Notes under the pieces: generated by a model
What the model saw: only the letters and a program-made list of their open reading frames with translations
Told to the model about the DNA's origin: nothing
Database searches by the model: none
Program-made: the position numbers and the translations under genes
In this document: positions 3,844 to 47,199 of the stretch, one piece after another
Layout of the letters: each line of letters begins with the position of its first letter
Numbering within the stretch: the stretch's first letter is position 1
Assembly: GCA_023267655.1 (NCBI GenBank)
Contig: JAHFMV010000006.1
Span: forward strand, 1 to 59,292
DNA length: 59,292 bases
Direction of reading: 5' to 3'
Origin: Candidatus Kaiserbacteria bacterium
GTDB taxonomy: Bacteria; Patescibacteriota; Minisyncoccia; Phycocordibacterales; UBA2100

Positions 3844-4029
3844 CTAAGGCAATACGCCTATTTTCTGCTGTTCGTTGAAGCGTTCCACTAGCTCGCGCTG
3901 ATCAGCGTTTGAGCGACGCACAATATCGGCAAGGACACGCTCTCTCTCCTCGAGGGGTGCATCCTTCATGAACGCCGAGAGCGACTCGTGCGTCTTCTTC
4001 GAAAACAGGCCTTTTATGAAGGTAATCAT
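3844..4029 (-). CDS. 61-aa helical/charged protein translationally coupled to the zeta-like kinase (candidate cognate partner)
   Basis: Its ATG (4029-4027) overlaps the zeta gene stop TGA (4028-4026) as ATGA. Sequence MITFIKGLFSKK...ERERVLADIVRRSNADQRELVERF. Confidence 0.5.
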   Translation of the reverse strand: MITFIKGLFSKKTHESLSAFMKDAPLEERERVLADIVRRSNADQRELVERFNEQQKIGVLP

Positions 4030-6035: not shown

Positions 6036-7031
6036 GTGGCTGAATCGCTTAAAGATAAGATCGCTGTTTTTAAAACCGGTGCTCAACGTGCTTTTATTGA
6101 AGCGGTGGAAAAGAAATATTCGGTCGAAAGAATTGCACGGATATGCTCAGGCTCAACGCGTACCATCCGCGATTGGAGAAGAGAGAAATTTAATATGCGA
6201 TTATTATGTGCTCGCTCCCTTTCCAGACAGGCACAAATTCCACTCCCGAAGAATATCAAAATCTGCGATAGATACGCGCATACGCACGACGCAGCAATAA
6301 AAGGAGCTCGCGCTTTATTAAAGAAGTATGGTCGCATTCCTGTTGATGAAAATTACAGAAAAGCGCAATGGTTTAAGTGGTGGCAGCAAAATGGTCGCTT
6401 TCAAATACAAGTGCCGCAGTTTTATGCACTCCCCGTTGTTGAGCCGCCAAAAAGTGTCGAGCTCGCCGAATTTATAGGAACTATGATGGGAGACGGCGGC
6501 TTAAGCAAATACCAAGCATGCATCACGCTCCATCATATCGATGATCGAAAATACATCGATTTTGTTATCGCACGAATCAAGATATTATTTAAAATTACAC
6601 CTGCCTTATACCATATTCCGAAATCCTCAGTCTTTAATATCGTGATATCCAGAACGGGCGTAGTGGATTATCTACACTCTCTCGGGCTTCCTATCGGCAA
6701 TAAGGTTCGACAACAATTTGACATGCCTGAATGGATAACGGAAAATAAGAAATTCGCAATCGCGTGTGTGCGCGGGCTCGTCGACACTGATGGTTCCGTT
6801 TTTACCCACTCGTATAAAGTAAAAGGCAAATGGTACCACTACAAAAAACTCTCCTTTTGCAGCCGTTCACAACCACTCCAATACACGGTAGCCCGTATAC
6901 TGACTGAGCTTGGTATGCGCGCTCGGATATCCGGTTATGACGTTTGCCTGGACAGCATTGCGGATATGAAAAGGTTCTTTGCCGTCATTGGGTCGAGTAA
7001 TCCCAAACATTTGGAAAGATACGCTAAATAA
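6036..7031 (+). CDS. Free-standing LAGLIDADG homing endonuclease with an N-terminal HTH-like region
   Basis: Two LAGLIDADG motifs (LAEFIGTMMGDGG and ACVRGLVDTDGSV). GTG start 6 nt after TGgTAAAAT (6021-6029). Confidence 0.85.
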   Translation: MAESLKDKIAVFKTGAQRAFIEAVEKKYSVERIARICSGSTRTIRDWRREKFNMRLLCARSLSRQAQIPLPKNIKICDRYAHTHDAAIKGARALLKKYGRIPVDENYRKAQWFKWWQQNGRFQIQVPQFYALPVVEPPKSVELAEFIGTMMGDGGLSKYQACITLHHIDDRKYIDFVIARIKILFKITPALYHIPKSSVFNIVISRTGVVDYLHSLGLPIGNKVRQQFDMPEWITENKKFAIACVRGLVDTDGSVFTHSYKVKGKWYHYKKLSFCSRSQPLQYTVARILTELGMRARISGYDVCLDSIADMKRFFAVIGSSNPKHLERYAK

Positions 7032-14536: not shown

Positions 14537-14541
14537 GTTAG

Positions 14542-14613
14542 TACGCCCACTAGGAATCGAACCTAGATACGCCGTGTATAAGACGACTGCTCTAACCGTT
14601 GAGCTATGGGCGC
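14542..14613 (-). tRNA. tRNA-Ile with anticodon UAU (no encoded CCA)
   Basis: Manual cloverleaf: GCGCCCA TA GCTC-AACGGTTA-GAGC A GTCGT-CTTATAC-ACGGC GTAT CTAGG-TTCGATT-CCTAG TGGGCGT A. G1-U72 wobble. Confidence 0.8.
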
Positions 14614-20800: not shown

Positions 20801-21065
20801 TATCTTTGTAGGACGCATGAATCGTATCGCCGGAAATAGTAACTTCAGACACGGTGCCTGCACGAATATCTGCCGCAATCTGCGAGACAGGAACCGTTTC
20901 TGTCTTGTTCAACCAATATTCGCGCACCGCCGTGTACGCACCCGAGAGGACAAGAAAGATGACAAACGCGATCGCGACTTGCATCCAAATGCCCGGACGC
21001 TCCGGCAGTTGCGGCATGGATTTCTTGCCTTTCTTAGGCTTCTTTTGTTCGTCAGAGTCTGACAT
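17826..21065 (-). CDS. ftsH: FtsH AAA+ zinc metalloprotease, interrupted by an intein
   Basis: N-terminal TMs. Walker A is split as GAPGTGK|C...HN|[10 protein letters not shown]. Walker [19 protein letters not shown] zinc site. The extein is 644 aa. Confidence 0.95.
19062..20366 (-). mobile_element. 435-aa intein with LAGLIDADG homing-endonuclease domain inside the FtsH P-loop
   Basis: Starts [10 protein letters not shown] (block A), has TSEHPIVV (block B), LGVIIGDG and [12 protein letters not shown] (LAGLIDADG), and ends [10 protein letters not shown] followed by +1 Thr. Confidence 0.85.
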
Positions 21066-28363: not shown

Positions 28364-29032
28364 CTAGCTCACCCTCTTTCGCGTATGGTGATACCAACCG
28401 AGAGCGTAAACATCTGGCGTCAGAGAACGCATGGCGACGAGTTTGATGCAAATAAAGATGGTAAGGACGAGCGCGACAATGAGAAGCTTCGGATTCGCCA
28501 GCGCACTACCAAGGAGTACATATACGGTGAGCGATGGGATGACGCCGAGTGCCGTGCCGAGGATATACGTCCGGTATGACATGCTGGTAAGCCCTGCGCC
28601 ATAATTGATCGGATCGAACGGAGCGATCGGGATGAGCCGTAGGATCATCAGTGTGATAAAACCACGCTTCTGTACTACTTTGTCGAGTTTGCGGACGAAT
28701 TCAATGCGCGAATGACTCGCCCATTTATTGCCGAGAAAACGCGAGATGCTGAATGCGATGAGTGCCGAGACATTTTCACCGATATATCCTCCGAGAATGC
28801 CGATCCACGGACCAAATGTTGCTCCCCCGATGACAAGCATGACAGAATCCGGGATGAGGAGGATGGGACGGATGGCGTAGGCTAGGAGAAATAAAAGGAA
28901 ACTGTATTCAGGGTATAACATCACAAATTGTCTGATGTCATGAAAAAACGAACCTCCGTTGTATACGTATACTCCGACGCTGATAAGTATCGAGAACCAG
29001 AGGACAGCTGCAATAGCACGTATTGTATGCAT
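28364..29032 (-). CDS. DedA / TVP38-TMEM64 (VTT domain) membrane protein
   Basis: RFLGNKW...LRLIPIAPFDPINYGAGLT...YILGTALGVIP. Confidence 0.8.
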   Translation of the reverse strand: MHTIRAIAAVLWFSILISVGVYVYNGGSFFHDIRQFVMLYPEYSFLLFLLAYAIRPILLIPDSVMLVIGGATFGPWIGILGGYIGENVSALIAFSISRFLGNKWASHSRIEFVRKLDKVVQKRGFITLMILRLIPIAPFDPINYGAGLTSMSYRTYILGTALGVIPSLTVYVLLGSALANPKLLIVALVLTIFICIKLVAMRSLTPDVYALGWYHHTRKRVS

Positions 29033-29050: not shown

Positions 29051-30454
29051 TCACTTCGGGAAAAATGGTTCAACTTCTTTCCCGACAGCTACTTCGTATG
29101 GCAACCCCACCGGATGTGTATGCGGATGCACAACCTGACCGCTTAACTCGGGAAAACCGTCTTGTCCGAGCGGCACCTCGTATTCATACATGTCGGATGT
29201 ATCGAATGGTTTGTTGTAGAGGAATCCCCTCGTTTTTGGATACACATCACCACGACCTTTTACAAATGTATACTGGAACGTTTGCAGCGCGGAATGTTTG
29301 CTTTTAAAACCCTCGATTGAACCAAGATAGTACAACATCCAAATCCTCCTGAAACTCTCGTTATAGATTTTCGGATTGATCGCTTGTATCTTGTCCCAGT
29401 GCTCCAACATTTTTGAGAGCATCACCTCCATCGTGTCAGCATAAAGGAAATGTGTGTCCTCGAGATCAACGATGTGTAAGTCATATTTTTCGCAATATTT
29501 GAATATGTCGCCCATGCTGGGAAAATAACAACCGCGCCAGATGTATTTGCCAATGATGTAGTCCGTGTAATACCGGCTGTAGTGGCCGACATTCGTGATG
29601 ACACCGATGCCGCCGGGCTTCAACGCCTCCGAGATGTTTTTGATCCAATCTTCGACACAATCCTTGCCCGCGTGTTCAAGGACGCCGAGCGAGACATATT
29701 TGTCATATCGCTCTCTCTCATGACCGAGCTCTCGGCAATCGCGCTTTTCAATCCTGATCTTATCCTGTAAACCCATATGGATGATGCGTTCCATCATTAT
29801 GCGGTTCTGTTCGTCAACAAGTCCGTAGTTCACGACATGCGCGCCGTACTTTTTCGCCATCATGAGTGCCATCGTCCCCCACGCAGAACCAACTTCTACT
29901 ACTTTATCGCCCGGTTTTAAGCGAAGCTTCCGGCACATGTAATCATACTTTTTGAACTGTGCTTCGTTCTGCGTCTCGTGACCAGTCTGGTAATAGCCCT
30001 CTGTATACCCATACAACTCGCCATTCATGTAGTGGAAGAACTCCGCGGGCATATTGTAGTGTGCGTATAAATTGCGCTTCTCCTGCAAATAACTCCGATT
30101 ATTAAGACGCCATTCTTGCCATCGTTTGAACGCCCACGCCACGGGGTTTACCGTTTTCTCGAGCGGGCTTTTCCTCATCTCATAACTCATCCGTAGTAGT
30201 TTACGTGTAGCTTCTTTGTCACCATCCGGGCCTTCAATATCAACCTCACCAAGACGGTACATCTCGATAAACCCAATATAATTGAGGAAGAAGGTCATCC
30301 ATTCGCTGAAATTCGTATTGAACCGCACGGTAATCTCCGCATCCCCTGGAAGATTCTGGTAGGTCGATCCATTTGCAAACACGACTTTAAGGGGAAATTG
30401 TGAATCGCTTTTAGCCAAATACGAGAATGCCTTCCGTAGTACGAACCTCTTCAT
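29051..30454 (-). CDS. Cyclopropane-fatty-acyl-phospholipid-synthase-like SAM methyltransferase
   Basis: HYNMPAEFF...KLRLKPGDKVVEVGSAWGTMALMMAKKYGAHV...LGVLEHAG. The start is trimmed to MKRFVLRK. Confidence 0.8.
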   Translation of the reverse strand: MKRFVLRKAFSYLAKSDSQFPLKVVFANGSTYQNLPGDAEITVRFNTNFSEWMTFFLNYIGFIEMYRLGEVDIEGPDGDKEATRKLLRMSYEMRKSPLEKTVNPVAWAFKRWQEWRLNNRSYLQEKRNLYAHYNMPAEFFHYMNGELYGYTEGYYQTGHETQNEAQFKKYDYMCRKLRLKPGDKVVEVGSAWGTMALMMAKKYGAHVVNYGLVDEQNRIMMERIIHMGLQDKIRIEKRDCRELGHERERYDKYVSLGVLEHAGKDCVEDWIKNISEALKPGGIGVITNVGHYSRYYTDYIIGKYIWRGCYFPSMGDIFKYCEKYDLHIVDLEDTHFLYADTMEVMLSKMLEHWDKIQAINPKIYNESFRRIWMLYYLGSIEGFKSKHSALQTFQYTFVKGRGDVYPKTRGFLYNKPFDTSDMYEYEVPLGQDGFPELSGQVVHPHTHPVGLPYEVAVGKEVEPFFPK

Positions 30455-30535
30455 GCGACAATTATCGCATAGCACATTACGAGCCGATGTCCCCGTGTGG
30501 ACAGAAGTGCATAAAAAAGACGTATACTTTTCGAT

Positions 30536-31519
30536 ATGAACTACCGATACCTGCAGCCGCAGTGGCTCCTTAATGCAATCGAACGTTTCCACTCATCACG
30601 CCCGACGACACGATTCCAGTGGTGGTACTTTGATTTTGTGCTCGAAGACGGAACAGTCCTAATCGTTGCATTTGTTCCACAACAGTGGTGGCCTTCAATG
30701 TTTTCACCTGAGGTAGCAAACGCGATACTCTTTGTATCATTACGAGACCCTTTGGGCGCTATCAAACAATGGACGACAATACGTCCAAGTACAACTTTTA
30801 CGAATACGCTGGGTCGGGTCGGAATTAGCAATATAGTCTCAGTCACCAAGAAAGGCGGTGAATACCGTATCGTGCTCAACTATGAAGACATCGGCGGCGA
30901 AATTAATATCAAACGATCAATGCCTTCTTTTGCGGCCTCACCGTTTGGAATCTTGCCGACATGGCTATTGCGATTGCTCTCGCAAAAAAGAGCGCCAATC
31001 TCATATGCGGCACTTATTCCCCGTGGTGATGCGAATATTAAGCTTAAGTTAGGAAACAAAAACATAGAAGGTAGGGCGCTCGCGTATCATGAACAAGGAA
31101 GATTTGACGGCACGACGGACGAATTCCAAAGAAAAGGCTGGGTATGGGTGCATATCCTCGGCAAAGAGTGGAGCATCTTCGGCGCGGAAGACACGTTCAT
31201 GTATATGACAAACGGAAAAACTGCTATTGAACATACCTTTCCAATGCGTCGAGAGAAATTAGTCATGGCGGACAAACAATATTCCGGCGAAGAGGGACAC
31301 ATCGTGAAAGGAGCCCGGATGGAATTTAAAACCGCCGAAGTATCGCTTTCAGTAACCTTCGAACCATCAAATGAAAAAAGTCTTACCCACTGGCTCTCAA
31401 CCGACTCGCACGAGATATGGTCAATCAGTCATGCTATCGCCCACGTTCACATTGAACACAAGGGGAAACGTTATGATTTCTCGGCACCCTCTCTGCTTGA
31501 AACGGTCAGATGCCGATAA
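30536..31519 (+). CDS. CrtC/AttH-like lipocalin-fold hydratase-like protein (tentative)
   Basis: The N-terminal FQWWYFDFVLEDG resembles the EWWY motif of carotenoid 1,2-hydratase/AttH domains. A TATACT -10 box lies 7 nt upstream of the ATG. Confidence 0.35.
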   Translation: MNYRYLQPQWLLNAIERFHSSRPTTRFQWWYFDFVLEDGTVLIVAFVPQQWWPSMFSPEVANAILFVSLRDPLGAIKQWTTIRPSTTFTNTLGRVGISNIVSVTKKGGEYRIVLNYEDIGGEINIKRSMPSFAASPFGILPTWLLRLLSQKRAPISYAALIPRGDANIKLKLGNKNIEGRALAYHEQGRFDGTTDEFQRKGWVWVHILGKEWSIFGAEDTFMYMTNGKTAIEHTFPMRREKLVMADKQYSGEEGHIVKGARMEFKTAEVSLSVTFEPSNEKSLTHWLSTDSHEIWSISHAIAHVHIEHKGKRYDFSAPSLLETVRCR

Positions 31520-31522
31520 AAT

Positions 31523-33307
31523 CTATTGTTTCTTTCTTCGCACAAAAAGCAGCTCGTCCGGCAGACGGAAGAGGCCTTCGTCGTTTTTCTTTTGCTCGAT
31601 AAAGTGTGCGATAAAGCCGACGGAACGCGGGATGACAAAAAGCGCATTGAAAAATTCGGCGTCGACGAGTTCAGTGAGTTCGGTGTCGGAGAAACCTTCT
31701 TTTTCGGCGAGAATGTCGAGAAAAATCGCAGCCATCACGCCGTCGACGTTCAGAATGAGATTGCCGTTTTTCGCGGTCGTTACTTTTTCGATTTCACGGG
31801 CGAAATCGTAGTGTGGATGCTTTTTGAGGAGCGTTGCAAACTCGGCTATTGCGGCGACACGCGGATCAGGGATGCCGACGCGGTATTTCAAGTGGCCGAT
31901 GCCGAGGAGAAGTTTGCCTTCACGAGTCTTTTCTTCCACAAATTGTCCTGCTTCCTTTTTCGACGCAACACCATCAATCCACACGCGTGCCGCTTCGTTC
32001 ACCGCACCACCAAAGCGTGGACCAATCGTGAGGAGGCCGGCAGCGAGCGAGGAAACAAGATCCTTCCCCGCACGCGCCGTAATCATCGTATTCACTGCGC
32101 CGGAGACATTCCCGCCGTGGTCGATAAGGAGCGAGAAGACTGCCTCCGCGAACGCTGCAGTGACGTCGGATTTCACTTCTCTGCCGAGGATGGCTTCGAG
32201 TGATTTTTGTGCGAAGGTGGTTTCGGATGCGACAAGCTTTTTGTTCTTCACGAAGACCGGCACCGCATCCATATCGACAACTTCCCGCGTCGAGAGAATG
32301 CTTGCCTTTCGTTTTGAAAGCTCGTCCATAGGCACGACTCTATCATGGAATTCCGGCGTCGAAAGACCGCGAAGCGCTGCGAGAAATTCCGGAAACGTGT
32401 CGGGCGCGATCGCATCGACCGCGCGCAGAGCGTCGCGTTTTGCGCGAGCGCTTTCGTCTTTGTGGGCAACGAGCGCTTTCGCGTGGCCGAATTGCATGTG
32501 TTCGTCGAATGCTTCGTCGATGACCCCGGCGATATAAGCAATGACCGGCTTCGTAAGCTTTTTTGCCTTAATGAGTTCCACGATTTCATACTCATCAACG
32601 CCGCCAAGCTCGCCAAAGTAACAAATTGCTTTCGTCGCCGCGTCTTCTTCCGCGAGTGAAAGCACTTCGCCGAGAGATGAAATTGGGAACCGGTCGCCGC
32701 CGATTGAGATCGAGAATGAGACCCGCTTCCCCGCTTGCGCGACCGCAGTAATAAGCTCGTTCGTCATGCCGCCCGAAGTCGAGACGACGGCGACGGAACC
32801 AGCGGTTGCGAGTTTGCCTTGGTCGAGCTGTGCGAGGCCGATGCCGCCGATCGCACCGATTTTCAAATACCCGCCGACAAGAATGCCGACGCCCGATGGA
32901 CCCGCGATTATCTTTTCGCCACCGTATCGTTTGATGAGTTCGGTTTCGTGCCTCTCCGGGACGTTCTCGGCGAAAATGTGCCCTCCGTATGCGTCAGGAA
33001 ACGCATCAAAAAAAGCGACGGTCGAATCGAAGGCACGGCGTCCGCTCTGGACATTGAGCATCCAATTCACTTTTCCTACGAGGTGTTTAGGGAGCGCCGC
33101 AACATTCGGATAGCACGGGATGAGCACCTCGCCTTTCCCGAAGAAGAATTTGAGCGATTTGCGATTCGAGGTGATGCACGCAAGGATGGACGGCTCTTTT
33201 TTCCCGCATGCATAATCAAAATCGAGAATGGATTGGACAACACCCGGATGATTGCCGAGGACGAGCGTCTTTTGCCCTTTTTTGCGTATGTCTTGAATTG
33301 AGATCAT
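31523..33307 (-). CDS. aclA: ATP-citrate lyase alpha subunit (CoA-binding, CoA-ligase and citrate-synthase-like domains)
   Basis: SILDFDYACG, VSTSGGMTNEL, IGGDRFP, phospho-His motif QFGHAKA, C-terminal citrate-synthase-like LLGIGHLKYRVGIPDPR. The start is trimmed to MISIQD. Confidence 0.8.
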   Translation of the reverse strand: MISIQDIRKKGQKTLVLGNHPGVVQSILDFDYACGKKEPSILACITSNRKSLKFFFGKGEVLIPCYPNVAALPKHLVGKVNWMLNVQSGRRAFDSTVAFFDAFPDAYGGHIFAENVPERHETELIKRYGGEKIIAGPSGVGILVGGYLKIGAIGGIGLAQLDQGKLATAGSVAVVSTSGGMTNELITAVAQAGKRVSFSISIGGDRFPISSLGEVLSLAEEDAATKAICYFGELGGVDEYEIVELIKAKKLTKPVIAYIAGVIDEAFDEHMQFGHAKALVAHKDESARAKRDALRAVDAIAPDTFPEFLAALRGLSTPEFHDRVVPMDELSKRKASILSTREVVDMDAVPVFVKNKKLVASETTFAQKSLEAILGREVKSDVTAAFAEAVFSLLIDHGGNVSGAVNTMITARAGKDLVSSLAAGLLTIGPRFGGAVNEAARVWIDGVASKKEAGQFVEEKTREGKLLLGIGHLKYRVGIPDPRVAAIAEFATLLKKHPHYDFAREIEKVTTAKNGNLILNVDGVMAAIFLDILAEKEGFSDTELTELVDAEFFNALFVIPRSVGFIAHFIEQKKNDEGLFRLPDELLFVRRKKQ

Positions 33308-33308
33308 A

Positions 33309-34205
33309 TTATTTGAAAACGACTTTCCTATAGCTGTTGCGCGTCTTTGCCCACTTTTTCGGATCCATTTGCATAACATGAAATGCGAATCCATCGCGTT
33401 TGTCAGGAATGATAGAAAAACCATTTTTACCATCTTGAACGCGGAAAGAATTTCGAACCAGCATACTTCGCGCCTTGTGTATATCTTTCGCAACGAGGTG
33501 GATAAGTGCTATTTCTTGCATGTTCGTAAAGCGTTTCTGCAGAGGACTTTTAATCGCGCCGTGGACATTTCTATATTCTGCCGGCGTCAACCACTCTAAG
33601 AAATGCGGCCCGAGAATGAGACGTGTGGGTTTTTCCAATTTTCCGCCGAGAAGCTTTTGCCATGTCGCGGCACGTTTTTGCGGCCGTTGCGTGATGAATG
33701 TCATTCCGGTCAGTCCGTAAATTGTATTTTTTCCGATACTAACTGTATATGGCCTTGTCCAGTCGCGTCGCACATAGGTAAGCATGAATGACCAAGCGCC
33801 AGGAAGATATTTTTGAGGGATGTCTTGAAACGTCCACCAAGGATTCGAATCATTCGCCTCCTTCATTGTCTTCGACCACGTCGGCTTGAGCTTGAATCCA
33901 AGCTTGACCGCTTTTTTGTGGAATGCGTCCACGTTTTTTGATTCCCATGCAACGCCAAATGGCCTCGGATTACGTTGGAAGAACTTGTGGCTTGCAGTCT
34001 CTTTTTTATTGAACTCACTCTGATTTTCAACCCAGCAAAACTCAATGTAATCAGGACCGAAATTGACGAAACCGTTTCGCTTTCCCGGTGCGTGACGAAC
34101 CGTATTCTGATCCACGACAAATCCCGCTTTTTTGTAACGCTCCAAGTACCGATCAATATTCGGAACGTCCGCGAACGAGATGATGTGATTGAGAAAGGGC
34201 TTCAT
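33309..34205 (-). CDS. Glyoxalase-like/VOC-fold protein of unknown function
   Basis: 298 aa with an N-terminal HIISFADVPNIDRYLERYKKAGF beta-alpha-beta-like module. ATGA overlap with aclB, and 1 nt from the aclA start. Confidence 0.5.
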   Translation of the reverse strand: MKPFLNHIISFADVPNIDRYLERYKKAGFVVDQNTVRHAPGKRNGFVNFGPDYIEFCWVENQSEFNKKETASHKFFQRNPRPFGVAWESKNVDAFHKKAVKLGFKLKPTWSKTMKEANDSNPWWTFQDIPQKYLPGAWSFMLTYVRRDWTRPYTVSIGKNTIYGLTGMTFITQRPQKRAATWQKLLGGKLEKPTRLILGPHFLEWLTPAEYRNVHGAIKSPLQKRFTNMQEIALIHLVAKDIHKARSMLVRNSFRVQDGKNGFSIIPDKRDGFAFHVMQMDPKKWAKTRNSYRKVVFK

Positions 34206-35374
34206 GGTTTTACGAATTTGATGGCGTCTTCGACGGCTTTGGTGATGACCGTGTCGGAGCCGTAGATAGTGCCGAGCAATTCTTCTTTCGTGAGGAATTC
34301 GCGCATCAATTCGAGTCCTGCTTTTTCGTTCGGCCCGCCACGACGGACGAAGACCTTGATACCCTGTTTGCGCATCTCTTCGGCATTTTCCGTAAGCGCA
34401 TCAATGATGCCGGCAAATGTTTTGGCGATATCGGTAAAGTTCGCGACGCCACCCGCGATGACGAGTGCTTTTGTTTTCGCCTTTGACGCAAGACAGAGAG
34501 AGATAACTTCTCGCGCGTACAAATGCGTCTCTTCGCGCGTCGGACCACCGCTATATTCGCCGTAATTGCCGATCAAATCTCCTGCGCCTTGCAGTTGTGC
34601 TTCGTCAGCGATCACGATTGAACCGCCGCCACCGGAGAAAAGGAAAAAGAGTGCGCCGTCTTTATTGAGAACCTTGAGTGAGAGCTGCGCTGGTGTTGTT
34701 GCTGCAAGCGTTTCGACTACCTCCTCGGCTCCATGCTGCGCTTTTCCTTTTACCAGGTCGTCGTCTGTCCAATTCTTTGTGAAAAAAGCGCCCGCACTAT
34801 CCACCAAAACCGCCGCATCGAGCGGGATCGCAATGTCGTCGCGCACAACGAGCGGATTGATCTCGAGGAACGCAAAAAAGTTGTCGTTAAATTTCTGCAA
34901 AAGGTCGCGGAGGAATTTCTCATTGAGCCCTGTTTTCTTTGCCACTTTGGCGATGTCGGACTCGCCCGCAACAATAAGATTCGTAACAGCTTCCGGATGC
35001 GATTCGATCTCGATGCCGCCGTCTTTTGCGTGCAATATGCGCACGCCCTCGCGCACTCTCTCGAGCGAGAGATACTGTTCTTCTTCTGACTTGTGCGGAA
35101 ACAAGGGCTCAAGGAGGAACTGCGAGAAACCTTTTTTTGCCCAAACGGCGAAAGCATCCGCCACTTTCTTCGCATCAACATCCACCGCAACCAACCCTTG
35201 CTTCATACGCTTTTTGACGCCTTGATCCACTTTTGCGACCCACCCCATTAGAGAGCCTTTGGCCTCTAACGGGGCAAGCTTTCCTTTTTCATCCACTCGT
35301 ACAGAGATACCACGATACGAATCGCCAAGGATTATTTTCTTCGCGCGGTATTCAGTAAGCTTGACCCGCGACAT
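34202..35374 (-). CDS. aclB: ATP-citrate lyase beta subunit (ATP-grasp)
   Basis: FSGGGGSIVIAD, GNYGEYSGGPTREETHLYA, AGGVANFTDIAKTFAGI, VFVRRGGPN: ACL-specific motifs. Confidence 0.85.
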   Translation of the reverse strand: MSRVKLTEYRAKKIILGDSYRGISVRVDEKGKLAPLEAKGSLMGWVAKVDQGVKKRMKQGLVAVDVDAKKVADAFAVWAKKGFSQFLLEPLFPHKSEEEQYLSLERVREGVRILHAKDGGIEIESHPEAVTNLIVAGESDIAKVAKKTGLNEKFLRDLLQKFNDNFFAFLEINPLVVRDDIAIPLDAAVLVDSAGAFFTKNWTDDDLVKGKAQHGAEEVVETLAATTPAQLSLKVLNKDGALFFLFSGGGGSIVIADEAQLQGAGDLIGNYGEYSGGPTREETHLYAREVISLCLASKAKTKALVIAGGVANFTDIAKTFAGIIDALTENAEEMRKQGIKVFVRRGGPNEKAGLELMREFLTKEELLGTIYGSDTVITKAVEDAIKFVKP

Positions 35375-35378
35375 ATTT

Positions 35379-35801
35379 CTACAATTTAATGGTGAATACC
35401 GTTGTCTCTTTCACATTAAATCCCACTTTCTTGTAGAGATTATGTGCGGCGGCATGAATTGGCCGGCTTGTAAGATAGACAGTGTCCGCCTTTTTCTCGC
35501 GGGCAATACTAAGGACTTCGCGCACCAGCTTTTCTCCGATACCCTGCCCGCGATATCCACTATCAACGACAACGTCTTCGATGTATCCGCCGCGTTTGCC
35601 GATTTTTTGGAGCATGTAGAGTGTGGCAAGTCCAATGATTTTCTCGCCGTCTTTCGCAACGACCATAGTGGCGTTTTCATCCGCGAGCAACGCATTTAAA
35701 TCCGCCAACGTACCTACCCGCCCCTCGTGGAGCTCGTTGTTCACCGCGTTAATATCCGCAAGCGCGCTTTCGCTCGCTTCGGTAAGCTTTTCAATTGTCA
35801 T
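35379..35801 (-). CDS. GNAT N-acetyltransferase
   Basis: IEDVVVDSGYRGQGIGEKLV (motif A Q/RxxGxG). A TAGGAT -10 box lies 7 nt before ATG 35801. Confidence 0.85.
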   Translation of the reverse strand: MTIEKLTEASESALADINAVNNELHEGRVGTLADLNALLADENATMVVAKDGEKIIGLATLYMLQKIGKRGGYIEDVVVDSGYRGQGIGEKLVREVLSIAREKKADTVYLTSRPIHAAAHNLYKKVGFNVKETTVFTIKL

Positions 35802-35868
35802 GGAAACAATCCTACCCTCTCCACTTGAACGGGGCAAGAACGCCGACACGCGTTGTATACTGACCCGA

Positions 35869-37050
35869 ATGTCACTTACCCGATCCCTTGGGTGTCTCGG
35901 TTTGGTCATCATTCTTGCCTTTGCTTTCGCTGCACATGCAGCGAATCGTCCTGCGACCGCCGCTGATTGCGCAAAACTTGCTACAGAATCCCCAGGGATT
36001 CCGTGTGATCCCGGACAAACGCCCTACGATCCCAACAATCCCTTCATAGGCGACGAGGCCGCCGACGCCACAAAATTCCTCCTCGAGAGAAATGGCACGG
36101 GGACGCGAGGAACGGAGTGTTACAACGGAGATCAGACGATGAGAATTACGAAATTAAATCCGCAGTTTAAGATCGGCCTCGCTAAAGCGATCGCAGAGAT
36201 GGAGAAGTTGTACGGCGGAAGAGAGATCATTCAATCGGGATTCCGGTGCGATGGCACGGACGGCAATCATCCTAAGGGGTGCGCGGTCGATATCATCTAC
36301 GCATCATGTAAAGCAAAAGGAGGCGATGGCTGGCGTTGTTCTTCGGATCGATTCGATTCGCCCGAACAAAAGTGGATTGACGCAAACGGCAAAAATGCGC
36401 CGTACAATATTCACCTTCGGTTACGATATGCCCCGGAAGGCCACCATGTCGAACCGGTCAACACAAAAGACTGTGTGACCGGTGCTACGGTGGGATCGGG
36501 CAATCCTCCCGGTTCCCCGACGAGCGATTTTGCAAACGCGATCCGCCAAGCACTCGGTGTGCAACAACAGCCAGCACAACAACCGCCGCTTCCACCGCAA
36601 CCGCTGCCGCAACAGCAATCCCCTCTGAACAATTTCAATCAGCCAATGCCAACACCGATCCCGATCGCAACGTCGTCCGATACCAGCGATACGTCGAGTG
36701 GACCTTCAATTGCTGACAAGTTAGAAAAACTCGCAAACGGCGACACGGAAAAGACGCCGCCGACACAAGTCGGTACGTCGGTTCCGCTCGTCATCAATGG
36801 GAAGGATGTTGGGGTTATTGCCGGTACTAAAAAAGCCGACGATGTACCTTCAACAGCCGGCATTGGCGGATCGATCACACAAAATACATTTGCGACAGAA
36901 GATTTGAGCAACCAAGGGGTACATACGGGCACTCAAAGTGCATTCGTCCGCATCCTCGCCTCTATAAAAGCCACACTGCTGCAAATGCTGCAATATTTGA
37001 AACCCTTCGGATCGCGTCCTGCACCTGATACTACTGAATACTCTGACTAG
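35869..37050 (+). CDS. Secreted LAS/M15-type peptidase-like protein with P/Q-rich linker and conserved C-terminal module (paralog 1)
   Basis: Signal peptide MSLTRSLGCLGLVIILAFAFAAHA, HPKGCAVDI (HxxGxAxD), EGHHVEP, then the QQQPAQQPPLPPQPLPQQQ linker. Confidence 0.6.
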   Translation: MSLTRSLGCLGLVIILAFAFAAHAANRPATAADCAKLATESPGIPCDPGQTPYDPNNPFIGDEAADATKFLLERNGTGTRGTECYNGDQTMRITKLNPQFKIGLAKAIAEMEKLYGGREIIQSGFRCDGTDGNHPKGCAVDIIYASCKAKGGDGWRCSSDRFDSPEQKWIDANGKNAPYNIHLRLRYAPEGHHVEPVNTKDCVTGATVGSGNPPGSPTSDFANAIRQALGVQQQPAQQPPLPPQPLPQQQSPLNNFNQPMPTPIPIATSSDTSDTSSGPSIADKLEKLANGDTEKTPPTQVGTSVPLVINGKDVGVIAGTKKADDVPSTAGIGGSITQNTFATEDLSNQGVHTGTQSAFVRILASIKATLLQMLQYLKPFGSRPAPDTTEYSD

Positions 37051-37084: not shown

Positions 37085-38386
37085 ATGTCCTTGCGTGGTT
37101 TGAGGTTATTTTTCCTATTGTTTGTAGCAACCGTACTAATACTCATGCCAAATGAGATTTTTGCGCAGTCATTCGCATGCACAGGCGGTGGACAATCACA
37201 TCCTGCGACACAAGCAGAAGCAGATGCTGCGTTTCCTAAGGGCTCTGTTGTAGTAGGAAAAACGCAAGTGTGTCCGGGTCAGTCGAGTGGAGGGATTACT
37301 GAAGACGCTGGAAAAGCAAAAGAATCTCTGAACACGATGTGGTGCGGAGGCAAAGCGGCACAGTGCGGTCCGTATAAAAGCGACGTGGAACATCTTGATC
37401 CACAATTCACCGTGTGCGCCGCAAAATTTTTACAAGAAGTGCGGCAAAAAGACCCTTCGATTTGCATTGCGTCAGGATTTCGTAGCACCGAGCATCAACA
37501 ATTTTTGTGCAGCGGCGGATGTGGGAGAGTGAATGGTCCTTGCGCGCCCGCAGGACAGTCAAAACATCAATCAGGAAGAGCAATAGATATTGAGAAACCG
37601 GGATTTAACACGCTCCCCGCATGGGTCCATCAGACGGCGAGGGAGGGAGGGGGTGTTTCGTTCCCTGTACCAGGTGATGATGGGCATATGGAACCGGCCA
37701 ATACAAACGCATCTGATTGTGCCACGCCGGGGTACATCGCTCCTGGAAACGGTGGTGGGCTAACATCTCAATCTCCCACGTCGCAATTCGCCAGTGCGAT
37801 TCGGCAAGCGCTTGGAGTTCAACAGCCACAGCTTCCGCCACAACCTATGCTTCCTCCGCAACCGCTCGCGCAGGCACAACCTATCACAAATGCGTTTATG
37901 CCACCGATGCCGATGATAAATCCGACTGTCACGGCAACATCATCGGATGGGACGAGCGACTCTGGCGGACCGAGCACCTACGCGCCCGGTGTTTCCGACA
38001 GCATCACTGGCGGGATCGGAAAAACCACGGCGACCGGCACGTCGCTCGCGGACAAACTACAAGAACTCGCCTTTGGCGTCTCGACCGGCATGGCGACCGC
38101 AAGCGGACCGTACATTCCGCTCGTCATTAACCCCAACGACCGTGGTAATGCCGCGGATGCCACGACCTCGACGACGAGCGCGCAGTTTGCAACAAGTACC
38201 GGCGCCGTCGTCACACAAAATACCTTCGGGCAAAATTCTGTCTATTTCACGCCCGACTATTCAGTGTTCCAAAGCGCGACCGGTTTTGGAGAAATTCTTG
38301 CGCGCGTGCGAGTCGTCTTGAGTAACATGCTCACCTTTCTGCGACCATTCAACCGGCAACTTGTGTCGCCGGGAGTATCCGAATGA
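37085..38386 (+). CDS. Secreted LAS/M15-type peptidase-like protein (paralog 2)
   Basis: SKHQSGRAIDI (SxHxxGxAxD), DDGHMEP. Shares FA(N/S)AIRQALGVQQ, ADKL, PLVIN, TQNTF and (K/R)PF blocks with paralog 1. Confidence 0.65.
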   Translation: MSLRGLRLFFLLFVATVLILMPNEIFAQSFACTGGGQSHPATQAEADAAFPKGSVVVGKTQVCPGQSSGGITEDAGKAKESLNTMWCGGKAAQCGPYKSDVEHLDPQFTVCAAKFLQEVRQKDPSICIASGFRSTEHQQFLCSGGCGRVNGPCAPAGQSKHQSGRAIDIEKPGFNTLPAWVHQTAREGGGVSFPVPGDDGHMEPANTNASDCATPGYIAPGNGGGLTSQSPTSQFASAIRQALGVQQPQLPPQPMLPPQPLAQAQPITNAFMPPMPMINPTVTATSSDGTSDSGGPSTYAPGVSDSITGGIGKTTATGTSLADKLQELAFGVSTGMATASGPYIPLVINPNDRGNAADATTSTTSAQFATSTGAVVTQNTFGQNSVYFTPDYSVFQSATGFGEILARVRVVLSNMLTFLRPFNRQLVSPGVSE

Positions 38387-43690: not shown

Positions 43691-44083
43691 TCACTGCTGC
43701 ACCGCATCAGCGAGCGTTCGTAAGACAGCACCATAGATTTCCCGGACTCTCTTGAGAAGTTCCGCGGCATATTCATCGCTATAGTCGTGAACCATCCGGT
43801 TCCTATCATCAATAACGGCGAGCAGAGTTTCTCCGTCGTCTCCAGTGATGAGAGACGCAGCGGATGCAGCGCGTACCGTGTCTTTGGGGAGCATCACGTC
43901 CGCGCCACGTTCGCTTAAGATTCGTTGCAAAACTTTCGGCATGAGTTCGGCGGCAAGCTCGAAGCGCAAGAGAACAGCATCGCGATCCGCATTTTCCGGC
44001 AAGGCGCCGAGTGCAAGCGCCTTTTCGAGAGCCGTTACTGCTTTTAAGAAACGTTGTGCCGTCCGTGTTGCTACGCTATCCAT
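43691..44083 (-). CDS. HEPN-domain protein (HI0074 / nucleotidyltransferase substrate-binding family)
   Basis: 130 aa, all-helical, RNRMVHDY (Rx4H) motif. Confidence 0.8.
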   Translation of the reverse strand: MDSVATRTAQRFLKAVTALEKALALGALPENADRDAVLLRFELAAELMPKVLQRILSERGADVMLPKDTVRAASAASLITGDDGETLLAVIDDRNRMVHDYSDEYAAELLKRVREIYGAVLRTLADAVQQ

Positions 44084-44394: not shown

Positions 44395-47199
44395 TCAATA
44401 GGTAGGCGAGAGCGGATCCAGCGCCGGTCGTGGTTTTGGTGCGAAACGCGCGCGGACTTCTTCTTCGACTTCTTCCCTATCGCGACCGTAGGTGCGGTAT
44501 GAGAGTTCCTTGAGCGATTCGATGTGTGAGAAATCGAACTGCGGCAGGTCGGCCGTGCGGAGCGTAAACGGGCGCACCGGCTCGCCGTTTGAGAGCATGG
44601 CGACCGCTGCGTCGCGGTTTGCTTGGTTCTCGAGATCGTGGCGCGTAAAGACCGGATTGAATTGCTTTTCGAGAAATTCGGCGTCAGTCGTGCCGATACG
44701 GAACGCGATTTTCGTGCCGACGTTGCCGATCACGGCGTCGCGGATTTTCTCGTCGAGCTGCGCGATGAATTGGTGTGCGATCGTGAGTGAAAGCTTGTAT
44801 TTACGAGCTTCGGAGAGGATGGTCGAGATGCTAGCGGTTGCAAAGTTTTGGAATTCGTCGATGTAGAGATAGAAGGTCGGCAACTGGCCGCGAGTGTCGA
44901 CGCGTGAGAATGCCGCCTGCAAGAATTTGGAAACGAGGACGAGACCGAGGAGTGATGCGTTGCGCTCGCCGAGGCGACCTTTCGAGAGATTGGCGAGAAA
45001 AATCTTCTTGCCGTCCATGATTTCGCGGAAATCGAATGCGGAATGCTGTTGCGCGACTATGGGACGCATGATGTCATTGGCCGTAAAGACGTCGATTTTT
45101 GACGAGATATACGGCACGATATTTTCGAGCGATGCTTCCCCACCCGCGGCCTCGGCAATCTTGCGCCAGAAGTTGATGATGACGGGATTTTTGCACTTCG
45201 CGATTTTCATATTGCGGAATTCGGTGTCCGCCATCACGCGCGGAATTTCGAGGAGCGTGGAGCCCGACTCCTGATCTTCGACAACAAGCTGCGCGGCGTT
45301 ACGGTAGTACTGTTCAAACATCGGGCCGAATGCTTCGGGAATATCGTTGTAGAGCTTGCGGAAGATGTTGTAGACCTCATCGACGACGAATGTTTTCATC
45401 TCGGGCTTCGACTCGTCGTATTCGAGCATGTTGAGACCCATTGGCCGCGCTGTGTACGCGGGATCGAAATAAATCACGTCTTCATAGCGATTCGGCGGCA
45501 CGGCGGCGAGAATGTCTTCGATATCGGTGCCGTGCGGGTCGATGTAGGCGACGCCTTCGCCGTTGTGCATATCTTGAATAATCATGTTTTTCAGGATGCC
45601 CGTTTTACCGGTACCTGTCTGGCCGATGACATAACAGTGGCGCAGGCGGTCGCTCGTGCCGAATCTGACCGGCGTCTCCTCTGCGCCGTATTTGTTGATG
45701 CCGACGGTGATGCCGTCTGCTGGCGTGTCCACAGGTGCCGGCGCTTGCTTCCCGCGCGACTTTTTCAATTCGCGCGAGGTGTTCACGCGCTCGGCGGTGA
45801 GGTGTACCATCGTCGCGATTTCGGAGAGTCCCAGCGGCATCGCGTAGCCGCTATCAAAGGTGCGGAAGGTAAAATCGCGCAGGAAATTTGCGATCGACCA
45901 GCTGGAAACCTTTTTAAACGTGAGACGGTTGCCTTTCGGGTCGTCGAATTGGTTGAATGGCGTGATGAGGTTGGAGAGGAGCGCTTCGGCGCGGGAAGAA
46001 TCCGGCGCGGACGCGACGACGCGGATCACGGTCGGGACGATGCGGCTCTTTATTTTGCGACCGATTTCTTCGGTCGCCACTTGGTCGTTTTGCTTCATCA
46101 TGCGACCTTGCTCTTGCTCTTTTTTCGACTCCGCATTGAAAATAGATTCTTTGATTTCGTGGACGACATCGCCCAGCACGGTTTCCGGCGTATGGAGCGC
46201 TTTGTAGAGCGGCTTCCCCTTTTCGAGCGAGCGGATGATTTTTTTATAATGCTGGTTGTATCGCTCACCTTCGGAGGAAACCACGATCTGAAGCGCCGCG
46301 CCCTCGCCGTGCTTGGCAAGCTTTGCAAACGATGCGAGAACGATGTTCATCGGATCGTGTTCGAACATTTCGTAGGTTTTGAGGGGATATGCAGGATGCT
46401 CGGCGAGAGTCGCATACGCGGCGGCATGGACGCCGCTGTAGTTGAAAATATTGTAATCGCCGCGGCATTCATTGATGCGAGCGTTTGGGAAGACTGATGA
46501 GATAAGGCGCTCGGCAAGCTGCTGCTTTTCGCGCGGGACGGCGACGTACAGCGATGCTTCTTCGGTACCCTCGGGAACGGCAATTTCCAGCGAAAATCCT
46601 TCGTGCTTTGAAATGAGTGTGAGGAATCCGGCGTAGAGCTGTTCGGACGAGGCTAGTACCTGCTCAAGTTTTTGCTGACCTTGTTTTTCGGCGTCGTTCT
46701 CGCCGTGCGCTTGCGGATGAATTTCAAAGAGGACGAGGTGGAGCGCCCGCGCGACTCGCTCCGGCGGCTTCATCCCCTTTTCGGGCAGACCTTCGGCGAT
46801 GTAGCGCACGAGGACACGATGCAAATCATCTTCAAGATGCGGATTTTTCATGCGCGCGGCGACGGAGAGCGCATTGCGGATGCCTTTGTCAGCAACGAGC
46901 CGCAGAAGCCCGTCCATTTGCGCGTCATGTTCTTCCGGCTCGAGCTTCAGTGCCTGCCTCACGGTCTCATGCTCCGGCATGATCACCGCTTCGTGCAGGA
47001 TTGTCGCCTGCGGCGTTGCGGCGTATTCCGCGACTTCACGCTTTGCGATGCGATCCCGTTCAAACTGCGAGCTCGGCACTTCGAGTTCGCGTTCTTTTTC
47101 AGCTACTCGCTCGCGCAGATAGGCAAGCTCCTCTTCGGGAGATTTAAATGTCGATGAAGGCGCGCGCGGGCGCTCTCCGATCCCTGAACGTGGGGGCAT
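44395..47199 (-). CDS. VirD4/TraG/TraD-like coupling-protein ATPase with a ~480-aa N-terminal extension
   Basis: Walker A VIGQTGTGKTG, Walker B FYLYIDEFQNF, LTIAHQF. TGgTATAAT lies 6 nt before the ATG. Confidence 0.7.
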   Translation of the reverse strand: MPPRSGIGERPRAPSSTFKSPEEELAYLRERVAEKERELEVPSSQFERDRIAKREVAEYAATPQATILHEAVIMPEHETVRQALKLEPEEHDAQMDGLLRLVADKGIRNALSVAARMKNPHLEDDLHRVLVRYIAEGLPEKGMKPPERVARALHLVLFEIHPQAHGENDAEKQGQQKLEQVLASSEQLYAGFLTLISKHEGFSLEIAVPEGTEEASLYVAVPREKQQLAERLISSVFPNARINECRGDYNIFNYSGVHAAAYATLAEHPAYPLKTYEMFEHDPMNIVLASFAKLAKHGEGAALQIVVSSEGERYNQHYKKIIRSLEKGKPLYKALHTPETVLGDVVHEIKESIFNAESKKEQEQGRMMKQNDQVATEEIGRKIKSRIVPTVIRVVASAPDSSRAEALLSNLITPFNQFDDPKGNRLTFKKVSSWSIANFLRDFTFRTFDSGYAMPLGLSEIATMVHLTAERVNTSRELKKSRGKQAPAPVDTPADGITVGINKYGAEETPVRFGTSDRLRHCYVIGQTGTGKTGILKNMIIQDMHNGEGVAYIDPHGTDIEDILAAVPPNRYEDVIYFDPAYTARPMGLNMLEYDESKPEMKTFVVDEVYNIFRKLYNDIPEAFGPMFEQYYRNAAQLVVEDQESGSTLLEIPRVMADTEFRNMKIAKCKNPVIINFWRKIAEAAGGEASLENIVPYISSKIDVFTANDIMRPIVAQQHSAFDFREIMDGKKIFLANLSKGRLGERNASLLGLVLVSKFLQAAFSRVDTRGQLPTFYLYIDEFQNFATASISTILSEARKYKLSLTIAHQFIAQLDEKIRDAVIGNVGTKIAFRIGTTDAEFLEKQFNPVFTRHDLENQANRDAAVAMLSNGEPVRPFTLRTADLPQFDFSHIESLKELSYRTYGRDREEVEEEVRARFAPKPRPALDPLSPTY

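Follow-up and report, generated by a model that had tools for sequence, protein, structure and literature searches.

The operon described here is predicted to encode a two-subunit ATP-citrate lyase (ACL) together with a GNAT acetyltransferase and a VOC-fold protein, and is part of the core chromosome of a groundwater bacterium assigned to the Paceibacterota (Parcubacteria/CPR). ACL in CPR is already known; comparison with related loci showed that its pairing with an acetyltransferase is the rule across relatives, and that the gene between those for the two ACL subunits is peculiar to a single small sub-lineage. Taken together, a leaderless coupled operon, a catabolic ACL, a lineage-wide GNAT partnership and a VOC gene inserted in one subclade make up the reading that we consider on balance probable.

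Organization of the operon

The window, i.e., the whole stretch of 59,292 nucleotides that was analyzed, contains core genes such as L15-SecY-Adk-Map, IF3-L20, tmRNA, FtsH, and RecG. The gene order, ORFs and junctions that had been proposed from the sequence alone (the sequence-only reading) were found exactly as described, all on the minus strand (Table 1). A 4-nt gap (AAAT) separates the GNAT gene from aclB, the TGA stop of aclB overlaps the ATG of the VOC gene as ATGA, and a 1-nt gap (T) follows the TAA stop of the VOC gene. The four genes thus arranged are one tightly coupled operon, predicted to be translationally coupled. A TTG at 33493 lies upstream of the AclA ATG, but none of the homologues starts there. 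Two independent ENA contigs, L040 (22.9 kb) and L041 (4.2 kb), contained identical genes in the same order, and both the AclB/VOC and the VOC/AclA junctions were spanned by unitigs from two groundwater-metagenome runs, which shows that this gene order did not arise from misassembly.

Table 1. Features of the ACL operon and its upstream region (positions in the window).
Feature	Position	Strand	Remarks
GNAT	35801-35379	-	140 aa; ATG = M38 of mechanical ORF; TAG stop
AclB, ATP-citrate lyase beta subunit	35374-34202	-	390 aa; TGA stop
VOC (two-domain, Glyoxalase_3)	34205-33309	-	298 aa; TAA stop; between aclB and aclA
AclA, ATP-citrate lyase alpha subunit	33307-31523	-	594 aa
TAGGAT -10-like box	35814-35809	-	7 nt before GNAT ATG; putative promoter, leaderless transcript
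TATACT box	35856..35861	+	7 nt before ATG (35869) of divergent secreted-protein gene

The TAGGAT box reported upstream of the GNAT gene was present, and the operon promoter shares a 67-nt intergenic region with the divergent secreted-protein gene, which was also called in L040. Boxes of the -10 type located 6–7 nt before start codons were a recurrent pattern across the genes of the window. A TAnnnT box ending 5–10 nt before the start codon was found at 17 of 41 gene starts, compared to a background of 6.3% of all ATGs (p=1.4e-10), and the gene at 51765-51187 has an identical TAGGAT with a spacing of 7. The earlier proposal of a leaderless transcript fits this pattern and is thereby supported as a prediction for the operon. 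A search among RNA runs gave none that contained this sequence.

Identity of the ATP-citrate lyase

AclB matched the Pfam domains Citrate_bind (PF16114, 162 bits) and ATP-citrate-synthase ATP-grasp (PF24948, 92.3 bits; cutoff 83). AclA contained Ligase_CoA and a C-terminal Citrate_synt domain (PF00285, 96.6 bits, residues 361-581), so that a citryl-CoA-lyase (citrate-synthase-homology) module with a His/His/Asp triad is fused onto this subunit. Among solved structures, AclA scored 329 bits with human ACLY, 315 bits with the Methanosaeta enzyme and 197 bits with Chlorobium limicola AclA, compared to at most 69 bits with the alpha subunit of succinyl-CoA synthetase (SCS) and 54 bits with the small subunit of citryl-CoA synthetase (CCS). 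The best PDB match of AclB was the Methanosaeta ACLY subunit (181 bits), followed by human ACLY (169 bits) and C. limicola AclB (106 bits), and the CCS large subunit gave 34 bits. The NCBIfam models for SCS scored far under their cutoffs.

All motifs quoted in the sequence-only reading (GEYSGGPTREE, GGVANFT, VFVRRGGPN, and FGHAKA) were found. The AclB motifs YGEYSG, ANFTD and VRRGGPN were kept in the alignment to Methanosaeta ACLY. In the alignment of AclA to human ACLY, His275 was aligned to the phospho-His H760 of the human enzyme, and the equivalents of the lyase triad H900, H975 and D1026 (DHGG, GIGH, NVDG) as well as those of human R1065 and R1085 were conserved; the phospho-His and the triad were likewise conserved in 51 representatives. 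Domain architecture, catalytic residues and scores thus agree with the earlier assignment of the two genes to ACL subunits, and AclB and AclA are solidly predicted to form a genuine heteromeric ATP-citrate lyase (EC 2.3.3.8), not SCS or CCS.

An SCS or CCS identity for the pair was rejected, as ACLY scored far above Chlorobium ACL, which in turn scored far above CCS and SCS; the comparison that had been suggested between these families places the pair with ACL.

Sequence comparison places the ACL in a clade specific to CPR, nearer to archaeal/eukaryotic ACLY than to the Chlorobi enzymes of the reductive TCA (rTCA) cycle. The archaeal/eukaryotic enzymes (Methanosaeta/Methanothrix ACLY-A/B, 6hxi/6znw; human ACLY, 6hxh/6poe) have the same domain set and were the top-scoring solved relatives (315–329 bits for AclA, 169–181 bits for AclB), although they are only about 40% identical to the ACL of the window. 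The latter is of two subunits like the archaeal form, whereas the eukaryotic ACLY is fused; its AclB is about 30 aa shorter, and it differs from both in being operon-linked to an acetyltransferase. C. limicola AclBA (6hxj; Kanao et al., 2001) likewise has two subunits, the order aclB-aclA and the same catalytic residues, but its distance is much greater (197 and 106 bits), the NJ tree sets it on a different branch, and it functions in the autotrophic rTCA cycle, a role that is not indicated for the ACL of the window. The CcsAB/Ccl system of Hydrogenobacter (6hxq, 6hxp) shares the overall chemistry and homologous domains, but only 34–54 bits were obtained with the CCS subunits and 65 bits with CCL, and in the window, as in ACL, alpha subunit and lyase module are one fused protein.

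The phospho-His loop of the window AclA is GHAKA, with Lys in place of a Gly of the conserved GHAGA, a change common to the whole CPR clade. The clade signature is FGHAKAL in place of FGHAGA, and archaeal and human ACLY have GHAGA where the CPR clade has GHAKAL. The replacement of this conserved Gly after the phospho-His was counted against the explanation favored here.

Distribution of ACL among CPR

Among Paceibacterota and other CPR, relatives of AclA were found in more than 120 protein clusters and in 39 species genomes. The best 120 homologues were 66–86% identical and, where the source was named, came from Paceibacterota, Kaiserbacteria, Liptonbacteria, Parcubacteria, Patescibacteria or just a "bacterium". 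The 39 species-genome loci were nearly all from CPR, a few being named only "uncultured bacterium"; AclA was 64–86% identical in 38 of them and 52% identical in the single Saccharibacteria locus. ACL has also been reported previously in surveys of CPR MAGs (PMC6851277, PMC12577380, PMC13014828). Across the Paceibacterota and the other CPR, the enzyme is widespread and shows high conservation, and the earlier view that it is unexpected in a CPR-type genome was not sustained.

Like the bacterium studied here, the Gracilibacteria (PMC6851277), Saccharimonadia (PMC12577380) and deep-groundwater Patescibacteria (PMC13014828) of these surveys have a two-subunit ACL in a reduced genome, and their enzymes were taken to produce acetyl-CoA and oxaloacetate from external citrate. 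An archaeal-like affinity was noted for the Gracilibacteria ACL, which was reported with GHAGA (PMC6851277), as opposed to GHAKA in the window. As far as searched, the acetyltransferase partnership, GHAKAL and the insertions between the subunits are not described in these three papers.

Acetyltransferases adjoining aclBA

The GNAT protein contains an Acetyltransf_1 domain (PF00583, 76 bits) with the acetyl-CoA motif RGQGIG, which agrees with the GNAT consensus R/Q-x-x-G-x-G/A. Its best NCBIfam match, RimI, scored 55.8, which is below the cutoff of 86.4, and only weak, generic matches were found in the PDB. In related genomes, aclB and aclA were adjacent in all loci, and 33 of the 34 loci having flanking DNA had a GNAT gene in the same orientation within 1.1 kb of aclBA. 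The linkage of an acetyl-CoA producer to a GNAT gene, as claimed from the sequence alone, is thus real and wider than claimed, and the comparison shows an acetyltransferase beside aclBA to be a conserved, lineage-wide feature. The adjoining GNAT was either of the 140-aa type found in the window (G1) or of an unrelated type of about 200 aa (G2), with a HAD-GNAT fusion in one locus. G1 orthologues (38–57% identical) adjoin aclBA in about 13 related loci, and one G1 orthologue was located directly after an acyl-CoA ligase gene rather than ACL. No acyltransferase neighbor was seen in three CPR or CPR-like ACL loci (L036, L072, and L073).

As all loci are from one lineage, these counts are not independent, and the adjacency could represent inherited gene order without functional coupling, aclBA having landed or been retained in a GNAT…DUF11 neighborhood. 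A DUF11 protein of about 650–690 aa follows aclA in many loci, and in L076 a G1 gene is followed by this same DUF11 gene with ACL absent, so that part of the GNAT-ACL adjacency could be inherited synteny rather than a result of selection. We consider it rather unlikely that gene order explains the whole pattern, since G1 and G2, which are not homologous, are exchanged for one another at one position even among closely related genomes, G1 is located downstream of aclA in L030 and L075, and a distant CPR ACL (44% identical) is preceded, in the GNAT position, by an acetyltransferase of a third kind, a membrane Acyl_transf_3 protein. In addition, the intergenic gaps in the related operons are 2–12 nt, which implies co-transcription.

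AcuA/AcsA and Pat/Acs are precedents for GNAT control of an acetyl-CoA-forming enzyme, and human ACLY is itself acetylated. In both pairs a small GNAT is also genetically linked to an enzyme making acetyl-CoA; the likeness to the window would be one of analogy only, and the GNAT family at the aclBA locus is interchangeable. By the same logic the GNAT might acetylate a lysine of ACL with the product of ACL as a feedback, possibly K277 in GHAKA beside the phospho-His. Its almost constant position next to aclBA and the restriction of the Gly-to-Lys change beside the catalytic His to the CPR clade would suit such a regulator, but GHAKA is also present in the GNAT-less CPR ACLs of L036 and L072, G1 occurs without ACL in L076, and the slot may be filled by either of two unrelated GNAT families or by a membrane O-acyltransferase. 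This role was judged distinctly improbable; a generic consumer of acetyl-CoA fits such interchangeable acyltransferase families better than a specific regulator.

Predicted metabolic role

The probable task of the ACL is to make acetyl groups out of scavenged citrate. Working catabolically, it would convert citrate, CoA and ATP to acetyl-CoA and oxaloacetate, with citrate coming from a host or from the community. Since no TCA cycle is expected in the organism, acetylation reactions would consume the acetyl-CoA, in the first place that of the co-transcribed GNAT, and the oxaloacetate could drain via the malic enzyme encoded 15 kb away. A citrate transporter was not seen in the window, which represents 59 kb of the genome. 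Cross-feeding of citrate to ACL-bearing Patescibacteria has been proposed (PMC13014828), and the ACL of a Gracilibacterium was described as a source of acetyl-CoA and oxaloacetate (PMC6851277).

The reaction is reversible and nothing in the sequence sets its direction. ACL might instead work as a synthase, forming citrate, CoA and ATP from acetyl-CoA, oxaloacetate, ADP and Pi, and such an ATP-yielding step by substrate-level phosphorylation would profit a fermentative organism. Citrate formation in this direction, conserving ATP, has reportedly been described for Desulfobacter. It would require a separate source of acetyl-CoA and a sink for citrate, neither of which was seen in the window, and the pairing with acetyl-CoA consumers points to ACL as a supplier; the synthase direction is therefore very unlikely.

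ACL has also classically been used as a marker enzyme for the rTCA cycle. Nevertheless, no genes for its partners (2-oxoglutarate:ferredoxin oxidoreductase, fumarate reductase, PFOR, or other TCA enzymes) were found among those of the 59-kb window, and the ACL is phylogenetically remote from the Chlorobi type, which makes a part in CO2 fixation extremely improbable. To our knowledge, CPR genomes are small and without TCA cycles. The earlier suggestion that the operon does not serve central carbon fixation is in line with this, as nothing in the window points to the rTCA cycle.

A large part of the bacteria in groundwater are CPR/Patescibacteria, and how they acquire central metabolites is poorly known. 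A highly conserved ACL with a near-constant acetyltransferase offers a testable route from host-derived citrate to acetyl donors in CPR symbionts. Matches to aclAB from the CPR clade in metagenomes should not be taken as rTCA carbon fixation, and FGHAKAL provides a simple sequence signature by which they can be flagged.

The VOC gene and the aclB-aclA junction

The VOC protein matched Glyoxalase_3 (PF13468, 47 bits), and its AF2 model (pLDDT 93) was most similar in Foldseek to the two-domain VOC enzymes HPPD and hydroxymandelate synthase (HMS; TM 0.55–0.6) and to the uncharacterized 3p8a, matches that are at fold level only (10–14% identity). Both matches place it in the vicinal oxygen chelate (VOC) superfamily, which is characterized by paired beta-alpha-beta-beta-beta modules around a metal site. 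Seven residues were invariant in 20 homologues (H7, H38, E55, E60, H201, H236, and D271). These His, Glu and Asp residues are the putative metal ligands of what appears to be a metal-dependent VOC-fold protein.

The gene was located between the ACL subunits in only three operons, those of the window, of L045 (VOC 71% identical) and of one ENA contig (VOC 55%), with overlapping junctions in all three, and it was missing from about 35 of the 39 related aclBA operons. Of the four-gene synteny looked for in other genomes, the aclBA-acetyltransferase part was thus found to be general, whereas the VOC part was confined to these three. The one AclA subclade to which the VOC-bearing operons belong also includes L001 and L004, both free of an insert, and L002, where an unrelated SAM-methyltransferase gene occupies the same slot. 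Other VOC homologues (64–65%, 50% and lower) occur in unrelated contexts, the nearest two outside the operon (65 and 64%) beside MazE/Fic and other unrelated genes. The GC content of the VOC gene was 45.6%, compared to 52–54% for aclB and aclA, which also speaks for an insertion. The VOC gene was therefore not confirmed as a hard-wired core part of the operon. It would have been acquired in one AclA subclade by insertion at the aclB-aclA junction, and kept there intact and translationally coupled, while ACL function would not require it.

According to the original proposal, the four genes form a dedicated citrate-to-product route, in which the VOC protein would be a third, integrated enzyme; it could, for example, be metal-dependent and have as its substrate either the co-product oxaloacetate, which is an alpha-keto acid, or a CoA thioester. 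Coupling on both sides in all three operons despite VOC divergence to 55–71%, the invariant His, Glu and Asp, which would suit a metal site, and the alpha-keto-acid dioxygenases HPPD and HMS as nearest solved folds speak for it. The rarity of the gene among aclBA operons, the methyltransferase filling its slot in a sister genome, the settings of its closest outside homologues and the mere fold-level likeness make it unlikely. Some tie to ACL function may still exist, the VOC gene having stayed intact and coupled while AclA diverged to 71% identity. At present, the VOC and methyltransferase inserts are regarded as a curiosity of operon evolution, with no evidence yet of a new pathway.

A broader scheme that we hold to be improbable as a whole would make aclBA and its interchangeable acetyltransferase a CPR-wide citrate-to-acetylation module with the aclB-aclA junction as a cargo slot. 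ACL would then be the main or only source of acetyl-CoA, feeding envelope or protein acetylation, and the VOC and SAM-methyltransferase proteins would handle the co-product or related acids, or their genes would be exchanged between strains by recombination via the acl flanks. In a sub-variant, the GNAT would acetylate the clade-specific Lys beside the phospho-His as product feedback.

Organization and start of the operon

The sequence-only reading had described a four-gene operon, and its coordinates and junctions agreed with those found here; all four genes lie on the minus strand and adjoin or overlap in a way that couples them translationally. All four protein assignments were confirmed by Pfam, and the peptide motifs quoted in that reading were all found in the sequences. 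Mechanical ORFs begin farther 5′ (ATG 35912, TTG 33493), and the shorter starts listed in the table are those used in homologues and database gene calls.

Features of the operon and its surroundings in the window
Feature	Position	Strand	Remarks
GNAT	35801-35379	-	140 aa; stop TAG, then 4 nt
AclB	35374-34202	-	390 aa; stop and next start overlap (ATGA)
VOC	34205-33309	-	298 aa; stop TAA, then 1 nt
AclA	33307-31523	-	594 aa
FGHAKAL loop	about 32470-32493		AclA residues 272-279
TAGGAT	35814-35809		7 nt upstream of GNAT ATG
Secreted protein	35869-37050	+	divergent from the operon
Secreted protein	37145-38386	+	VanY D-Ala-D-Ala carboxypeptidase domain
Malic enzyme	16424-15225
FtsH	17826-21065	-	ORF of 1079 aa
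tRNA-Ile	14541-14613	-	anticodon TAT (UAU)
Cyclopropane-fatty-acyl-phospholipid-synthase-like methyltransferase	29051-30592	-	long N-terminal extension
DedA/VTT membrane protein	28364-29032
Zeta toxin, HepT/MNT-type and TraG/VirD4-like group	4026-4748, 43691-44083, 44395-47199	-	TraG/VirD4-like coupling protein of 934 aa

Two independently assembled ENA contigs (L040 and L041) showed a gene order identical to that of the window, and both junctions of the VOC gene were spanned by unitigs of two groundwater-metagenome runs. The 59 kb around the operon were shown to be ordinary CPR core chromosome, with tmRNA, two tRNAs, RecG, FtsH, IF3-L20, L15-SecY-Adk-Map and NDK. A chimeric or contaminant contig, which the sequence-only reading had named among the findings that would refute its claim, is thus ruled out, and the four-gene order is no assembly artefact.

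Of 41 gene starts listed for the window, 17 are preceded by a TAnnnT box whose 3′ end lies 5-10 nt upstream of the start codon, most often 6-7 nt, compared to a background of 6.3% over all ATGs (binomial p=1.4e-10). Starts with this signature include those at 3127, 4748, 6036, 21065, 30536, 35869, 47199, 49771 and 51765, and the gene at 51765-51187 carries TAGGAT at the same spacing as the GNAT gene. Leaderless genes thus appear to be a genome-wide signature within the window, which agrees with the earlier proposal of a putative leaderless operon start with TAGGAT as -10 box. Reading TAGGAT as a Shine-Dalgarno sequence instead (AGGA, spacer 8) was rejected, since SD-like motifs were rare upstream of the 41 starts and TAnnnT boxes 6-7 nt upstream were strongly enriched. 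Upstream of the divergent gene for a secreted protein, TATACT lies 7 nt from the ATG (35869), and the 67-nt intergenic region would therefore hold two putative promoters placed back to back. A generic promoter and terminator scan of the operon gave nothing beyond shuffled expectation. The operon sequence was present in three runs, all of them DNA from groundwater metagenomes.

The two secreted proteins are paralogous (about 30% identical) with Q/P-rich linkers, and relatives of them were found divergent and upstream of the acl operon in loci L001, L045 and L075.

Identity and distribution of the ATP-citrate lyase

By every sequence criterion testable, AclB and AclA of the window are predicted to form an ATP-citrate lyase (ACL), and the main identification made earlier was correct. 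AclB was shown to contain the ACL-specific ATP-grasp and citrate-binding domains, and AclA a CoA-ligase domain with a fused citrate-synthase-like C-terminal module. Compared to solved structures, AclA scored 329 bits against human ACLY, 315 bits against Methanosaeta ACLY-B and 197 bits against Chlorobium limicola AclA, versus 69 bits or less against the alpha subunit of succinyl-CoA synthetase (SCS) and 54 bits against the small subunit of citryl-CoA synthetase (CCS). AclB showed the same order (Methanosaeta 181, human ACLY 169, Chlorobium 106, CCS 34 bits). Alignment to human ACLY showed that the phospho-histidine H760 and the lyase residues H900, H975, D1026, R1065 and R1085 are kept in AclA, and their equivalents are also kept across 51 diverse representatives. 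In a neighbour-joining (NJ) tree without bootstrap support, the sequences with an FGHAKAL phospho-His loop formed one clade, from which both Chlorobi-type ACL and the group of eukaryote and Methanosaeta-like ACL were separate. Because of these bit scores, conserved residues and the NJ clade, a placement of the pair within SCS or CCS, which the sequence-only reading had set against its own claim, was not borne out.

The loop reads FGHAKAL where other ACLs read FGHAGA. This G-to-K change was common to Paceibacterota, a Saccharibacteria locus, a Dojkabacteria protein and several further relatives; it was present in all CPR-clade ACLs sampled and absent from every other ACL sampled, and represents a new clade signature. 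A tie of the lysine to the adjacent GNAT gene was rejected, as GHAKA predates the adjacency and is found more widely.

Many fused AclB-AclA proteins of ~900-1050 aa without a eukaryote-style linker (P0159-P0213) were also present in the library of 50%-identity representatives; the NJ tree places them on several branches lying between the CPR clade and the eukaryotic one.

ACL had been regarded as unexpected in a CPR-type genome, which does not hold. The best 120 AclA matches were 66-86% identical to the AclA of the window, and all those with a named source came from Paceibacterota, Kaiserbacteria, Liptonbacteria, Parcubacteria, Patescibacteria or just 'bacterium'. With each GTDB species represented by a single genome, 39 ACL loci were detected; the record titles assign nearly all of them to CPR, and a few say no more than 'uncultured bacterium'. 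ACL was described as archaeal-like and 'rarely detected in CPR' in a closed Gracilibacteria genome (PMC6851277), aclAB was enriched in Saccharimonadia MAGs (PMC12577380), and CPR sequences were found wrongly annotated as SCS or CS (bioRxiv 10.1101/2022.10.25.513756).

Association with acetyltransferases

In all related loci aclB adjoins aclA, and 33 of the 34 loci whose upstream DNA was available have a same-strand GNAT gene no more than 1.1 kb away, mostly 2-12 nt from aclB. The link of GNAT to ACL noted for the window is thus general, and the pairing of aclBA with an acetyltransferase is a strong, lineage-wide feature that is near-universal in Paceibacterota and new. About 13 loci contained the 140-aa type of the window (G1) and about 20 a type of roughly 200 aa (G2), in one case fused to a HAD domain; G2 scored above the Pfam GNAT thresholds and showed no BLAST similarity to G1. 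Both types were present in L028, G1 lay downstream of aclA in L030 and L075, and no G2-type GNAT was found elsewhere in the window. In a more distant CPR ACL (44% identity), a membrane acetyltransferase (Acyl_transf_3) was located directly upstream. No acyltransferase was found near the ACL in the neighbourhoods of L036, L072 and L073.

These loci are phylogenetically related, and part of the pattern is explained by inherited synteny, which on a rival reading would be synteny without function. Close AclA relatives may differ in their GNAT type, as L009 and L038 do, and G1 also occurs at loci without ACL: in L074 (1751-6458) it directly follows a 746-aa acyl-CoA ligase, and in L076 (4001-6411) as in L074 the G1 orthologue is followed by a DUF11/CLIPPER protein of roughly 650 aa, the usual downstream neighbour of aclA. 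We read the pattern as a probable functional coupling between suppliers and consumers of acyl- or acetyl-CoA. The GNAT might alternatively regulate ACL; sequence searches of NCBIfam and PDB for its substrate gave generic, sub-threshold matches only (RimI, AAC, diamine acetyltransferases and GNA1), with almost no PDB signal for G2.

Under the coupling reading, ACL would cleave scavenged citrate to acetyl-CoA and oxaloacetate, the acetyl-CoA would feed the co-transcribed GNAT and other acetylations, and the oxaloacetate could be drained by the malic enzyme. The Gracilibacteria ACL was read as acting in the same direction (PMC6851277), and cross-fed citrate was proposed as the substrate of ACL-bearing Patescibacteria (PMC13014828). 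Rival readings would place the enzyme in an rTCA cycle or let it run in reverse with a yield of ATP.

The VOC gene between the subunits

The VOC protein belongs to a small family, with only 20 homologues found, all of about 300 aa and with seven invariant His, Glu and Asp residues. Its AF2 model (pLDDT 93) showed a two-domain VOC fold nearest to HPPD, hydroxymandelate synthase and the uncharacterised 3p8a, a likeness at fold level only, and a profile search against PDB matched glyoxalase I modules only (E about 1e-4).

The claim that VOC is hard-wired to ACL was not upheld. Three operons, all within one AclA subclade, were found to carry VOC between the two subunit genes, namely those of the window, of L045 (71% for VOC and 82% for AclA compared to the window) and of an ENA contig, L043 (55% and 71%), in all three with junctions that overlap or are 1 nt. 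Within the same subclade L001 and L004 are insert-free, and L002 carries a 249-aa SAM-dependent methyltransferase (6249-6998) with ATGA overlaps on both sides, in exactly the slot of VOC; this inter-subunit cargo slot is a new element. The insert-free junction of L001 (6976-7003) reads ATGAC... and ...GTTTTCA..ATG, like the 5′ and 3′ ends of the VOC gene, which only suggests that it may be a deletion scar of VOC. Other VOC homologues, including those at 65% and 64%, were found in unrelated contexts such as MazE-Fic-VOC, and no recurring partner was detected among the neighbours of 12 of them. The GC content of VOC was 45.6% versus 52-54% for its neighbours.

VOC is thus best described as a predicted subclade insertion. 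It would be dispensable for ACL, because the insert is confined to one subclade with insert-free and methyltransferase-bearing sisters and has homologues elsewhere. A functional tie, with VOC as a pathway enzyme, is unlikely and retains some weight because the gene has remained intact, with its translational coupling preserved, over considerable sequence divergence; an accessory passenger would be our preferred role for it.

Other features of the window

The FtsH gene encodes AAA and Peptidase_M41 domains with an intein inside, which carries a LAGLIDADG homing-endonuclease domain (Intein_splicing, LAGLIDADG_3). A tRNA-Ile with a UAU anticodon, as found here, is an uncommon bacterial means of reading AUA. 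A Zeta-toxin gene, a HepT/MNT-type toxin-antitoxin pair and a TraG/VirD4-like coupling protein were also present. CPR organisms are generally regarded as not making lipids of their own; the window contains a cyclopropane-fatty-acyl-phospholipid-synthase-like gene, adjoined by that of the DedA/VTT membrane protein.
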